Source of the DNA: Escherichia coli
GTDB lineage: Bacteria > Pseudomonadota > Gammaproteobacteria > Enterobacterales > Enterobacteriaceae
Assembly: GCF_003334405.1 (NCBI RefSeq)
Contig: NZ_QOWM01000010.1
Direction: 5' to 3' (one strand)
DNA length: 64,000 bases
A program made the translations under genes and the position numbers. Positions 29,838 through 58,408 of the stretch are shown here, in pieces. The notes below the pieces were generated by a model that made no database searches, was not told the origin of the DNA, and saw only the letters and a program-made list of their open reading frames with translations. Position 1 is the first letter of the stretch; each line of letters starts with the position of its first letter.

Positions 29838-31685
29838 TCAGATTGACAGCTTCTTGACGCGCTTGCCGCCATATAGCAGGTTTACGATGGCACGCGTACC
29901 GACAATCGCGGTAAACATCGACGTCGCCACACCGATACCGGTAGTAATCGCGAACCCTTTAATTGCCCCGGTACCCACTGCGTACAGGATGATGACTTTA
30001 ATCAGCGTGGTGATGTTCGCATCGAAGATAGAACTGAATGCGCCACGATAACCTTCATCAATTGCCTGTTGAACAGTACGTCCGTTGCTCAACTCTTCTT
30101 TAATACGTTCGTTGATCAGTACGTTCGCATCGACCGCCACCGCAAGGGTTAAGACGATACCCGCGATACCTGGCATACTCAGCGTTGCGCCTGGCAACAG
30201 CGACATAATGCCGACGATTAAGATCAAGTTGGCAATCAGAGCACTGGTCGCAATCAGACCAAACTTCTTATAGAAGATGATCATGAACAGAATAGAAACC
30301 AGCAGACCGGCAAGGCAAGCCTCCAGCCCCTGTTCAATGTTCTGCATACCCAGGGTTGGGCCAATGGTACGTTCTTCAACAATCTGAATCGGCGCGATCA
30401 ACGCACCGGCACGCAGCAGCAGTGACAGCTGACGGGCTTCGTTCGGGTTGTTGATGCCGGTGATACGGAAGCTGTTACCCAGACGAGACTGGATGTTGGC
30501 GATGTTAATCACCTCTTCCTGTTTCACCAGAACCGCACGACCATTTGCATCTTTCTTACCGCTGTCTTTGTACTCCACAAACAGGGTTGCCATCGGTTTG
30601 CCGATGTTGTCCTTAGTGAAGTTAGACATGATGTTACCACCAGCGCTATCGAGCGAGATGTTAACCTGCGGTTGGTTGTATTCGTCCTGGCTGGAAGTGG
30701 AGTCGGTGATATGGTCACCGGTCAGAATTACGCGTTTGTACAGCACAACTGGCTGACCTTCGCGGGTCTGTTTCACTTCAGAGTCGCCCGGTACGCGACC
30801 GGATGCCGCAGCGGCCTGGTCAACGTTGGTGTTTACCAGACGGAATTCCAGCGTTGCCGTCGCACCCAGAATCTCTTTCGCACGCGCAGTGTCCTGAATA
30901 CCTGGCAGTTCAACAACGATACGGTCAGCACCCTGACGCTGAACCACCGGCTCCGCCACGCCAAGTTGGTTTACACGGTTACGCAGGATATTAATGTTCT
31001 GCTGCACCGCATATTCACGCGCTTCACTCAGACGAGCATCGCTCATTACCGCACGCAGCTGGTTGCTGCCCTGGCTGCTAATCACCAGGTCCGGATGGCG
31101 CTTGCTCAGATACGCAATGGCTTCATCACGAGCTTTAGCATCGCGGAAAGTGATGCTCAGGCCGTAGTTGTTTTCTTTACGAACAGTGGTATACGGGATG
31201 CCCTTTTCGCGCAGGTCACTGCGTAGGCTATCGATATTTTGTTCCTGGAGTTTGCCAAGCGCGGTGTCCATATCCACTTCCATCAGGAAGTGAACGCCGC
31301 CACGCAGGTCAAGGCCGAGCTTCATCGGCTCAGCGTGAATAGCTGCCAGCCAGCGCGGCGTTGCCGGGGCAAGGTTAAGCGCCACGACGTATTTGTCACC
31401 CATAACGCCCATTAATGCTTCACGAGCGCGCAACTGGGTGTCAGTGGAGTCGAAGCGCGCAAGAATAGCGCCCTCTTCCAGTGCCACAGACTTAGCAGTT
31501 ATTTTTTCTTCTTGTAACGTTTTCTGGACCTGGATCAGCGTTTGCTCACTGGCGGCGACTCCGCGCGCACCAGTGATCTGAACAGCCGGATCCTCACCAA
31601 ACAGGTTGGGAAGCGCATACAGCAGACCGATGACAATCACCACGATCAGCATGACGTACTTCCACAAAGGATAACGGTTTAACAC
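29838..31685 (-). CDS. secD: protein translocase subunit SecD
   Basis: ORF track 615 aa, recognised as SecD; 10 nt upstream of secF. Confidence 0.97.
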
Positions 31686-40147: not shown

Positions 40148-41443
40148 TTAATCGCTGTTTTTGGCAATTAAACGTTCCGGGATAACAAAACTGAAACGTG
40201 TTCCTTTTCCTACTGTACTCTCAATATTCAGGCGACTTTCGTGATGATTCACAGCATGTTTCACGATCGCTAACCCTAATCCGCTACCGCCGGTTTGCCG
40301 GGAACGCGCTTTATCAACGCGATAAAAACGCTCGGTCAGGCGCGGAATATGCTCCGGTGCAATGCCCGGTCCGTTATCTTCAACGCTAAATTCGGCACCG
40401 TGCGGCACTCGCTGCCAGCGTACGGTGATATGCGTGCCTTCCGGCGTATGATTCACGGCGTTATAGACCAGGTTCGAAATCGCACTGCGTAGCTGATCTT
40501 CGTTGCCAGACACCTTGAGGCCGTTATCTATCTCAAAGGTAAATGTCTGTTTTTTCTGACTCAGAGTCTGAGCCTCGCGCTCAACAACGCGCAGCATCAT
40601 CGGCACATCAACCTTTTCATTGAGCAAATGCGTCGGTGCGGCTTCTATTTTCGACAGCGTCAGCAATTGCTTCACCAGTCCTTCCATCCGCTGGGTCTGC
40701 TCGCGCATGGTGTGCAACGCTTTTTCGCGTACCGCGCCTTCCAGCGGCTGCTCATTCATCATCTCCAGGTAACCCTGTAACACGGTCAATGGCGTACGTA
40801 ACTCATGGCTCACGTTGGCAAAAAAGTTACGCCGCGCCCCTTCCAGTTGATGCATTTGCGTGACATCACGCGCCACCATCAGCAACTGTTTGTGGGTATA
40901 AGGCATGACGCGAATTTCCAGATGCCGCCCGGTGTTGAGCACCAGATTGAGCGGGCGAGAAAAATCACGCGTTTTCAGATATTGCGTAAACTCCGGGTAA
41001 CGCAGTAGGTTAAGGATGTTCTGCCCGTTATCTTCCGGCCAGCGCAAACCAAGAATTTGTTGCGCCAGACCGTTACACCAGAAAATACCGCCCTCTTCCG
41101 TGGTCAGCACCACCGCGTCGGGCAGCGACTCCGCGCCGCTACGAAAGCGTTTAATCAGATTGCCCAGTTCACGGCGGCGTTTTTTATTTCGCAGCTGCAT
41201 CTGGTGTAAGCCGTATAGTAGCGGTTCCCAGCTACCACGCCCCGGTGGCGGGGTCATACTGCGATCCACCCACAGCCACCATGAAAGGCGCAATAAATTC
41301 CAGAAATGCCAGATAAGCAGTCCTGTTACCGATGCCAGCAAAAACCAGGGCAGGTAACCAAAAAATGCACCCAGGATGAAAGCCGGGAGGCAGCAAAGTA
41401 GCAGCTCCAGCACCAGCCTTTTCCACGACAGCCGTTCCAGCAC
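40148..41443 (-). CDS. phoR: phosphate regulon sensor histidine kinase PhoR
   Basis: ORF track 431 aa; H-box [12 protein letters not shown], HATPase C-terminus. Confidence 0.97.
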
Positions 41444-48279: not shown

Positions 48280-49188
48280 TTACTCTTGTGGCCATAACCA
48301 CGCAGCGCCGCGTACGCCGCTGGAATCACCGTGCTTCGCCTTACGCACCGGCGTTTCACATTCGCCGCCGAAGACAAATTGTTTAATCAACTGCCCAACC
48401 GTTTGATATAAACGGTCTACATTGCTCATCCCGCCCCCCAGGACAATCACATCCGGATCGAGAATATTCACGACATGTGCCAGCGATTTTGCCAGCCGCA
48501 GCTCGTAGCGACGCAATGCCAGTTCCGCTACCGGATCGCTTTCTTCAACCAGGCGGATAATTTCACTGCCTTTCAGCGCATGTCCGCTCAAACGACGATA
48601 ATCCATCGCGAATCCCGTGCCCGAAATAAAGGTTTCAATACAACCTTGTTTACCGCAATAACAAGGGACTTCCTCGCGATAACGCAGTTCGTCTTCGTCC
48701 ATCCACGGTAGCGGATTGTGTCCCCACTCACCTGCCGTGCCATTGCCGCCGATATGCGCCCGCCCATTGAATGCCACGCCCGCGCCGCATCCCGTGCCGA
48801 TAATCACGGCAAATACCGTCTGCGCTCCCGCTGCCGCGCCATCTACTGCTTCTGAAACCGCCAGACAGTTAGCGTCATTTGCCAGCCGCACTTCCCGCTG
48901 CAACCTCGCGCTTAAGTCTTTATCGAATGGCTGACCGTTGAGCCAGGTTGAATTGGCATTCTTCACCACACCGGTGTAAGGCGAAATTGAGCCAGGAATG
49001 CCCATACCTACCGTTCCGCGCTGCCCCGTCGCCTGCTCCGCCATATCAACCAACGTGGCGATCGTTTCAATAGTCTGCCGGTAATCATCACGCGGCGTGG
49101 GCAGACGATGGCGGTACAACTGCTCCCCTGCATCGCCCAGTGCAATCACTTCAGTTTTGGTGCCGCCTAAATCGATACCTATACGCAC
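48280..49188 (-). CDS. mak: fructokinase/mannokinase Mak (ROK family, 302 aa, GTG start)
   Basis: ORF track 48280..49326; start placed at GTG 49186..49188 giving (M)[13 protein letters not shown], preceded by SD AAGGAGAG. Confidence 0.88.
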
Positions 49189-49312
49189 GGTACTCTCCTT
49201 ATTTTTTTCAATATTAATAGCGTAGAGACGGACAACCGGATTGGCAATGCAAGGCCGCCGACAATTCGTTATCATGCCCGCTAAATTTAACGACAAGGCC
49301 GTGGAAATTATC

Positions 49313-50224
49313 ATGCTGTGGTTCAAAAATTTAATGGTTTACCGTCTTAGCCGCGAGATTTCGCTGCGTGCAGAAGAGATGGAAAAACAGCTAGCCTCGA
49401 TGGCATTTACCCCATGCGGCAGCCAGGACATGGCGAAGATGGGCTGGGTTCCTCCGATGGGATCGCACAGCGATGCGTTAACGCACGTTGCCAATGGTCA
49501 AATTGTTATCTGCGCGCGCAAAGAAGAAAAAATCCTCCCGTCTCCGGTGATTAAACAGGCGCTGGAAGCGAAAATCGCCAAACTGGAAGCGGAACAGGCG
49601 CGTAAGCTGAAGAAAACCGAAAAAGATTCGCTGAAAGACGAAGTGCTGCACTCTCTGCTGCCGCGTGCTTTCAGCCGTTTTAGCCAGACAATGATGTGGA
49701 TCGACACGGTTAACGGTTTGATTATGGTGGACTGCGCCAGTGCCAAAAAAGCGGAAGATACGCTGGCATTACTGCGTAAAAGCCTGGGGTCGTTACCGGT
49801 TGTACCATTGAGCATGGAAAACCCGATTGAACTGACGCTGACCGAATGGGTTCGCTCCGGTAGTGCGGCACAGGGCTTCCAGCTGCTTGATGAAGCCGAG
49901 CTGAAATCGTTGCTGGAAGATGGCGGCGTGATCCGCGCGAAGAAACAAGATCTGACCAGCGAAGAGATCACCAATCACATTGAAGCCGGAAAAGTGGTGA
50001 CTAAACTGGCGCTCGACTGGCAGCAGCGCATTCAGTTTGTGATGTGCGACGATGGTTCGCTCAAGCGTCTGAAGTTCTGCGACGAGCTGCGCGATCAAAA
50101 CGAAGATATCGACCGTGAAGATTTCGCCCAGCGTTTTGATGCCGATTTCATCCTGATGACTGGTGAACTGGCAGCGTTAATTCAAAACCTGATTGAAGGA
50201 TTAGGTGGCGAAGCACAACGTTAA
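49313..50224 (+). CDS. rdgC: recombination-associated protein RdgC (303 aa)
   Basis: ORF track 49241..50224 trimmed to ATG 49313 ([15 protein letters not shown]). Confidence 0.92.
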
Positions 50225-50381: not shown

Positions 50382-50732
50382 TCATTGTTTTTCCTCAAGC
50401 CGGTGACGCGCTTCACTGCGAATTTTCCGCGTTGCCCCGGTTTTCACTAAATCACGTAACAGCGAAAGATCGGGTTGTTCGACAAATAAGAGTAATGATG
50501 GATCCTCTTTTAACCACGCCGTTTTCACATCGGCAGCCAGCTGTGGATTATTAATAGCCAGCGACCGATCCTGAGGCTCAGTCAATGTCGTTAACAACAA
50601 CGCCGGGGTATGTGCGTTGCGCAATGCCGTTTGGCGTAAATGATCATTGCGACTTTGCAGCAATGCACGCCACCATTCATCATCTGATTTATCTTTTATC
50701 GTAGCCAGTTCCGCAACAATATCTGGAGATCT
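50382..50732 (-). pseudogene. ykiA-like ORF remnant lacking a canonical start codon
   Basis: 117-codon open frame (stop to stop); the only start-like codon is TTG at 50661..50663 (track 93 aa), with no ATG or GTG; no recognisable domain; AT-rich flank 50664..50870. Probably the K-12 locus I recall as ykiA, uncertain. Confidence 0.4.
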
Positions 50733-56169: not shown

Positions 56170-57585
56170 TTATTTCAGCCCCAGAGCGGCTTTCATGGTG
56201 TAGAAGAGATCGGTCTGGTCGGTCAGTCCAACAACATTGGCGGCATGCGGGCCATACGCCGCAATACGCAACTGACTGCCGGTATGTTCTTGTGAATCCT
56301 CTTCGGAGTTCCCGTAACTCATCACCATCACTGCGCCATCTTTGGTATTTAGCGCCTGGGTGAGGCCCGGAGCTTTGGTATCCGGCGCAACAATCTGGCT
56401 GGCGTGGGCGTGATCAGCGGTGACTATGACCAGCGTGTTACCCTCCTTTTTAGCGAATTCCAGCGCCCGTTGTACGGCTTCATCGAGATCGACCGTCTCG
56501 CCAATTTGCCCACAAGGATTCGCAGCATGATCCTGTTTATCGATTGACGCACCTTCAACTTGCAGGAAAAAGCCTTTCTCATTTTTACTCAACAATTCAA
56601 TGGCTTTGTCGGTCATCTGCGCCAGGGTTGGTACACTGTCATTACGTTGCGGATTTGGCGTACAGGTGACTGCGGGCTTATCGATATTGCCATGGTACGT
56701 TGCTTTCGGTCCTAGCCAGCGCACTGGCATATTGCCGTCAGCAAACAGGCCAAGCAGGGGTTTTTGCTGATTCGCTTCCGTCACCGAATTCAGTGAGGCA
56801 GCATCGCTCACCAACTGATAACCACGCGCCTGTGCCTGTTCACGCAGCGTTTTTCCCTGCCATTCACCAGCGGTTGCCGTTTCAGCAAAGGTTTTTGCGC
56901 CGCCGCCAAGCGTAACGTCGGCACGAGCGTTAAGCAGCTGTTCGGTAATCGATCCTTTTCCGCCTTTTTCCAGAGCGTTACCCGGACATTTTTCACTGGT
57001 CGCGCTCGGACCGTAGCATTTGCGCGAGGTCACATGTGCCACCAGCGCAGCGGGCGTGGCATCCTGCAACTCTGCGGTAGAAACGTTACCGGTCGCCAGA
57101 CCTGCGGCTTTTGCCATTTCCAGAATCGTTGGGTGATCTTTTTCGTGAATATCGACGCCCAGCGCGCCGTTATAGGTTTTGACACCGGTTGACCAGGCGG
57201 TTGCTGATGCAGCCGAGTCGGTGACGTAGTCCGGTTTGCCGGTTTTTTTATTCAGCGCATAGTGAGTGTATTGCCCGGTAAGCGGTAAGGCATCTATACC
57301 TTTAAAAAAGCCGCCCGCACCTTCGGCATAATTACGTGCGGCAGTAATTTCCGAGTCCCCCATCCCATCGCCAATCAGCAAAATAATATTTTTTGCAGGT
57401 TTATCGCTAAGAGAATCACGCAGAGCGGCAGTCTGATCACCCGTTAAACGGCGAGCACCGCCGGGTGCAGTAATATCGCCCTGAGCAGCCCGGTTTTCCA
57501 GAACAGGCATTTCTGGTGTCCGGGCTTTTGTCACAGGGGTAAACAGTAACGGTAAGAGTGCCAGTGCAATAGTGCTTTGTTTCAC
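56170..57585 (-). CDS. phoA: alkaline phosphatase (471 aa, GTG start)
   Basis: ORF track 56170..57654; known GTG start at 57583..57585 gives (M)[34 protein letters not shown]; active-site DSAAS motif. Confidence 0.95.
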
Positions 57586-57647
57586 TTTATTTTCTCCATG
57601 TACAAATACATTAAAAAATAAAAACAAAGCGACTATAAGTCTCGGCC

Positions 57648-57665
57648 GTGACAACTTTATGACAG
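57648..57665 (-). promoter_or_regulatory. Pho box of the phoA promoter
   Basis: Minus strand CTGTCATAAAGTTGTCAC about 60 nt upstream of the phoA start, with a TATAGT -10-like element downstream. Confidence 0.7.
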
Positions 57666-57946: not shown

Positions 57947-58408
57947 GTCTGTATTTCCTTATCCAAAGTATGGAGAAGTTAACATTATGTTTCACAACTT
58001 CATAGTGTCTGGAAGTATTATTTTTATGACAAAGGAAATACTTTGCGCAAATATTTTTTGTTTGATTACCAGCGAAACGTTTCTCTTATTTAAATAATTA
58101 CCCACACAAAATATAGGCTTTTAATTATCAACCTTTATTATAAATAAAAGTTATGAAATATATTCTCTTCGTTAACTTATAATTAAGAGAAAAAAACTCA
58201 CCGCATGGCCATTTAAGCCAGGAATAAATTAGCTTCCCGTTCATCATTTTTGTGATCTTGCGCACATCTTTGAGATAACGCACTTTCTTCACCAGTACGT
58301 TGCACGCTTTGTCAGCAGAAGATTGCAACAATCTTTCAGAAGGCCGCGAATCCCCCGTTTTGTCGTGGTAATGTATGCACTTTGTGTTAGACGGGATAGG
58401 TTTTTAAG

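Follow-up and report, generated by a model that had tools for sequence, protein, structure and literature searches.

Background

The closest described counterparts of the three genes considered here are those of E. coli K-12. In that strain phoA (b0383) encodes a 471-aa protein from a GTG at NC_000913:401747, secF (b0409, UniProt P0AG93) a 323-aa protein from a GTG at 429505, and mak, also called yajF (b0394), a 302-aa protein from a GTG at 410144. Counted from the GTG, the mature PhoA chains in the PDB begin at residue 22 or 23, in keeping with a signal peptide of 21 residues, and chains of the 471-aa precursor have also been deposited (5jtl/6psi). Searching the literature for papers that state the phoA GTG start explicitly yielded only unrelated uses of the letters GTG.

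We examined a 64,000-nt stretch of an E. coli chromosome, referred to below as the window, that carries lon, clpX, clpP ... secD, secF ... mak ... phoA ... ampH and is collinear with K-12 MG1655 in reverse orientation. A sequence-only reading of this stretch had proposed that phoA, secF and mak each initiate at a GTG preceded by a plausible Shine-Dalgarno (SD) sequence, and that all three open reading frames extend further, to upstream ATGs. After coordinate mapping the phoA GTG is the same codon as in K-12; the segment from -30 to +150 is identical to the oligonucleotide used for K-12 in INRI-seq, the SD, the Pho box and the implied 21-residue signal peptide are common to both, and nothing relevant differs. 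The SecF protein is identical to that of K-12, with the same secD-secF junction, including the SD that overlaps the secD stop, and no difference was found. For mak, the start codon, the SD and the protein length are the same. The GTG starts of phoA, secF and mak are already known, and they match the current K-12 and RefSeq annotation.

Start codons in the window

Coding sequence starts were taken from the RefSeq/PGAP annotation of E. coli NZ_AP022105.1, which is 99.97% identical to the window. The RefSeq starts of phoA, secF and mak are exactly the three GTGs that the sequence-only reading had named; it had left the strand unstated, and all three lie on the minus strand, where each appears as CAC on the plus strand (Table 1). 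Its count of three genes with GTG initiation was too low. Seven are annotated, and nusB, ribD, secD and phoR had been missed.

Among the 62 complete annotated coding sequences of the window, 54 start with ATG, seven with GTG (nusB, ribD, secF, secD, phoR, mak and phoA) and one with TTG. GTG starts reportedly make up about 14% of the genome-wide total in E. coli in the counts of Blattner et al. 1997, a proportion at which 8.7 would be expected here (P(X>=7) = 0.78). An in-frame alternative start lies upstream of 24 of the 62 genes, and at 11 of them there is an upstream ATG. Both the frequency of GTG starts and the occurrence of upstream alternative starts in the window are ordinary and unremarkable.

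Three other features of the annotation were recorded (Table 1). A 67-aa hypothetical protein between iraP and ddlA is called by PGAP only, from a TTG; no SD is evident in the sequence ahead of it (TTCTGAAAGA) and the K-12 gene tables consulted have no gene between b0381 and b0382. This gene call is doubtful. Between rdgC and ppnP, adjoining ykiD, RefSeq annotates a DUF2773 pseudogene whose N-terminus is missing. In tsx, which encodes a nucleoside channel, 6 bp that are present in NZ_AP022105.1 (CGGCAA) are missing near the 3' end; the deletion removes two codons in frame, and coordinate arithmetic gives the same difference relative to K-12 MG1655. Tsx is also the receptor for phage T6 and colicin K.

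Table 1. Positions in the window of the start codons and neighbouring features. SD, Shine-Dalgarno sequence; dG, duplex energy with the 3' end of 16S rRNA (kcal/mol). K-12 positions, INRI-seq peak ranges and Ribo-RET values are from PMC9825163.
Feature	Position	Strand	Remarks
phoA CDS	56170..57585	-	471-aa alkaline phosphatase precursor
phoA GTG start codon	57585..57583	-	CAC on + strand; RefSeq start; K-12 401747; INRI-seq 271-464; Ribo-RET 8.3
phoA SD GGAG	57594..57597	-	8 nt before GTG; within conserved ACATGGAGAAAATAAA; dG -6.4 at GTG; alternative starts -3.0, +0.3
phoA promoter	57632..57665	-	Pho box CTGTCATAAAGTTGTCAC 57665..57648; -10 TATAGT 57637..57632
phoA TTG(-14)	57627..57625	-	in frame
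phoA TTG(-23)	57654..57652	-	in frame; start of longest ORF
ORF overlapping phoA start	57599..57582	-	ATG GAG AAA ATA AAG TGA (MEKIK*); out of frame; its ATG is 57599..57597
secF CDS	28856..29827	-	323 aa; identical to PDB 5mg3_F (323 aa)
secF GTG start codon	29827..29825	-	CAC on + strand; RefSeq start; K-12 429505; INRI-seq 24-62; Ribo-RET 19.9
secF SD GAGGAG	29839..29834	-	6 nt before GTG; dG -8.7 at GTG; overlaps secD stop TGA 29840..29838
secF ATG(-15 codons), rejected	29872..29870	-	in frame; start of longest ORF; secD codons TAT-GGC in other frame; dG +0.5
secF Met20 ATG	29770..29768	-	internal; dG -0.4
secF -7 GTG	29832..29834	-	out of frame
mak CDS	48280..49188	-	302-aa ROK-family fructo(manno)kinase
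mak GTG start codon	49188..49186	-	CAC on + strand; RefSeq start; K-12 410144; INRI-seq 37-73; Ribo-RET 14.4
mak SD AAGGAG	49195..49200	-	6 nt before GTG; dG -9.8 at GTG; alternative starts -3.3 to +0.4
mak in-frame starts, longest ORF, rejected	49273..49326	-	ATG -29 (49275), TTG -36 (49296), ATG -42 (49314), TTG -46 (49326)
nusB GTG start	24199..24201	-	annotation only
ribD GTG start	25881..25883	-	annotation and N-terminal peptide MQDEYYMAR
secD GTG start	31683..31685	-	annotation; INRI-seq and Ribo-RET peak; K-12 427647; INRI-seq 14-20; Ribo-RET 121
SecD Met12	31650..31652	-	start in gene calls of the Logan assemblies
phoR GTG start	41441..41443	-	annotation and INRI-seq peak at K-12 417889
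67-aa hypothetical	58128..58331	-	PGAP only; TTG start
DUF2773 pseudogene	50382..50723	-	RefSeq; N-terminus missing
tsx	27325..28203	+	6-bp deletion at 28140

Strength of the Shine-Dalgarno sequences

We are nearly certain that phoA, secF and mak, all of them ordinary genes, use canonical, SD-led initiation at GTG, and that the frames upstream of them are untranslated and open by chance. The competing view is that the starts of the longest open reading frames are real, at the TTG at 57654 for phoA (494 aa), at the ATG at 29872 for secF (338 aa) and at the TTG at 49326 or one of the ATGs at 49314 and 49275 for mak (at most 348 aa), the GTGs then being internal valine codons. In its favour, the upstream frames of all three genes are free of stops in the window. 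We nonetheless give this view next to no credence, on the evidence presented here and in the following sections.

None of the longest-ORF starts has an SD. The energy of the duplex formed with the 3' end of 16S rRNA has a median of -6.2 kcal/mol at the annotated starts of the window and of -2.7 for random 20-mers drawn from it. At all three GTGs the SD is plausible, as the sequence-only reading had judged, and it is much stronger than at any alternative start, where the energies run from +0.5 to -3.3 with the internal Met20 of secF included.

The phoA start

The statement that the frames extend to upstream ATGs holds for secF, at -15 codons, and for mak, at -29 and -42, and fails for phoA, where the only in-frame start codons upstream are TTGs at -14 and -23. 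The longest phoA frame reaches 23 codons beyond the GTG, to the more distant of the two. There is an ATG at 57599, inside the interval that the sequence-only reading had marked, and as a start for phoA it was ruled out: it lies 14 nt upstream of the GTG and is out of frame.

The phoA Pho box matches the published consensus (PMC4447250); TTG(-23) lies inside this box, upstream of the -10 element, and TTG(-14) falls at approximately the transcription start, the position of which was estimated from the -10. From the anatomy of the promoter, both TTGs would be absent from the mRNA. A simple sigma-70 scan found no promoter at phoA, as is expected because the promoter is PhoB-dependent and has no -35.

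Orthologues of phoA were drawn from the genome scan used for mak (see below): 27 of its 80 loci match PhoA, and the 25 that do so over more than 400 residues were tabulated. The position aligned with the GTG is a start codon in 22 of these 25 loci (19 GTG, 2 TTG and 1 ATG). The remaining three align only from residue 28-29 onwards and have a GTG one codon away. A stop codon immediately precedes the start in three of the 25. The segment ACATGGAGAAAATAAA ahead of the start is almost invariant across the tabulated orthologues. In another E. coli strain there is a stop within 17 codons upstream of phoA and codon -14 encodes Cys, indicating that even members of the same species can lack both TTGs.

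The out-of-frame ATG at 57599 opens a frame of five codons whose stop overlaps the phoA GTG (GTGA). This bears on a further reading, in which the GTGs are the main starts and a functional minor second initiation occurs alongside them, either at this short ORF or at a GTG 7 nt upstream of secF; we regard that reading as very unlikely. The ATG of the short ORF is kept in most orthologues, yet it overlaps the SD of phoA, lacks an SD of its own and is replaced by ACG in three orthologues.

The secF start

The in-frame ATG upstream of secF lies within secD, where its letters belong to the codons for Tyr and Gly. The DNA was compared across eight genera (Salmonella, Rahnella, Dickeya, Yersinia, Serratia, Shimwellia, Pluralibacter and an Enterobacteriaceae isolate). 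All eight use GTG as the start, and the heptamer TGAGGAG, in which the secD stop lies within the secF SD, is invariant in nine sequences. ATG(-15) is gone in six of the eight genera through a change of TAT to TAC, which is synonymous in secD (Tyr).

The changes in the 15 codons upstream of the GTG tell the same story. Read in the secF frame they comprise 5 synonymous and 39 nonsynonymous changes, as would a non-coding extension; read in the secD frame, the same region has 23 synonymous and 11 nonsynonymous changes. For secF codons 2-19 the counts are 16 and 8. Together with the loss of ATG(-15), this pattern argues against the upstream ATG and also against an internal start of secF at Met20.

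The internal start, which would yield a 304-aa form of SecF, is suggested by a few database entries: several in nr and JGI are 304 aa long and start at Met20, with MRWDYWAF. We hold this start to be extremely improbable in spite of these entries. No SD lies ahead of Met20, and residues 1-19 are almost invariant in Enterobacterales, with codon changes that are mostly synonymous. SecF orthologues in that order are almost all 322-323 aa long and share the N-terminus MAQ(E/D)Y(T/S)(V/I)EQLN(H/Y)GRKV(Y/W)DFMRWD.

Direct evidence for the GTG comes from TRAINSPOTTER N-terminomics, in which a SecF N-terminal peptide covering residues 1-14 was observed and mapped to NC_000913:429505-429507, where the database start is GTG and where Ribo-RET, INRI and REPARATION give support (PMC13245402 Table S1). 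The peptide contradicts Met20 as the main start. It starts with Met at the GTG and so contradicts the longest-ORF start as well, since an internal GTG would give Val.

The mak start

For mak, a single scan of species-representative genomes yielded 80 Enterobacterales loci with 76-97% protein identity. The codon aligned with the GTG is a start codon in every one of the 80 species (73 GTG, 4 ATG and 3 TTG). An in-frame stop occurs no more than 10 codons upstream in 41 species, in 13 of them at -2. Any upstream in-frame ATG is found in only 25 of the 80 and none in the other 55, and a purine-rich core of the GAGG/AGGAG type lies 5-8 nt upstream of the start in nearly all. As at phoA and secF, most orthologues either lack the longest-ORF starts or have stops that separate them from the gene.

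The ATG at -42 overlaps the start of rdgC on the opposite strand. Mak aligns with solved ROK kinase structures from residue 2, implying that the fold begins at the extreme N-terminus. A simple sigma-70 scan found no promoter on the mak strand.

A single-nucleotide difference was noted 27 nt ahead of the mak GTG, at window position 49215, where the window has A (ATTAATATTG) and the MG1655-based INRI-seq oligonucleotide has G (ATTGATATTG). It falls in the mak-rdgC intergenic/promoter region and leaves the mak start codon and SD unaffected. The difference indicates that the window strain is not MG1655, from which it departs both here and in the 6-bp deletion in tsx.

Published initiation data

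In INRI-seq, phoA, mak, secF and secD each have a peak at the annotated start in five of five replicates (PMC9825163 Table S2). The corresponding in vivo Ribo-RET values are those of Meydan et al. 2019, as given in the INRI-seq tables (PMC9825163). To the right of window position 28140, subtracting the window position from 459332 gives the K-12 coordinate, and by this rule the K-12 peaks of phoA, mak and secF map exactly onto the three GTGs of the window. The initiation footprints are on the GTGs, with the restriction that the INRI-seq templates include no more than 30 nt ahead of the annotated start and are therefore blind to the upstream ATGs of secF (-45 nt) and mak (-87 nt).

The same data bear on a minor second initiation. 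Table S3 of putative new sites lists the secF -7 GTG, with a peak of 53.9 in four replicates and a Ribo-RET value of 14.6 (PMC9825163). This codon would open a frame of nine codons. It sits within the SD, at a distance of 7 nt from the true start, where footprints cannot be assigned unambiguously, and Yersinia has lost it, with GTA in its place. The entry probably reflects ambiguity in assigning the footprint of the main start. Table S3 lists nothing for mak or phoA, although the INRI-seq template of phoA included the ATG at 57599 (PMC9825163). That either of these tiny overlapping frames, the one opened by the secF -7 GTG or the MEKIK frame at phoA, is truly used by ribosomes and modulates how the main gene is translated has, in our estimation, only a very small chance of being correct.

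Among the genes that the sequence-only reading had passed over, the GTG start of secD is supported by INRI-seq and Ribo-RET peaks, and some automatic callers still err there: the gene calls of the Logan assemblies give a SecD of 604 aa from Met12, and NCBI one of 615 aa from the GTG. For phoR there is an INRI-seq peak and no Ribo-RET peak. The N-terminomics data include ribD with a GTG start, and contain no rows for mak, phoA, secD, phoR or nusB (PMC13245402 Table S1). The tryptic N-terminal peptide of Mak would be just MR. Pre-PhoA likewise yields no N-terminal peptide, since its signal peptide is cleaved off and phosphate-rich medium keeps the gene repressed.

Conclusions

RefSeq annotation, SD strength, conservation among orthologues, INRI-seq and Ribo-RET peaks and, for SecF, a peptide all place the starts of phoA, secF and mak at GTG. 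The mechanism is in all likelihood the conventional one. The 30S subunit pairs with GGAG, GAGGAG or AAGGAG 6-8 nt upstream of the GTG, and the initiator fMet-tRNA decodes the GTG as fMet. As to the upstream extensions, the ATG ahead of secF is a by-product of the secD Tyr-Gly codons (TAT GGC) in a different reading frame, the mak extension crosses the divergent mak-rdgC intergenic region, and the phoA extension crosses promoter DNA, with TTGs in the Pho box and near the probable transcription start. The overlap of the secF SD with the secD stop, with a gap of 10 nt, is typical of translational coupling and suggests that secD and secF may be coupled within the yajC-secD-secF operon.

In the window, a rule that takes the longest open reading frame overshoots the start of PhoA by 23 codons, that of SecF by 15 and that of Mak by as many as 46. 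The sequence-only reading had considered its observation relevant to automatic annotation. That relevance is a matter of annotation hygiene only, as PGAP is already correct for all three genes, and the finding brings no new biology.
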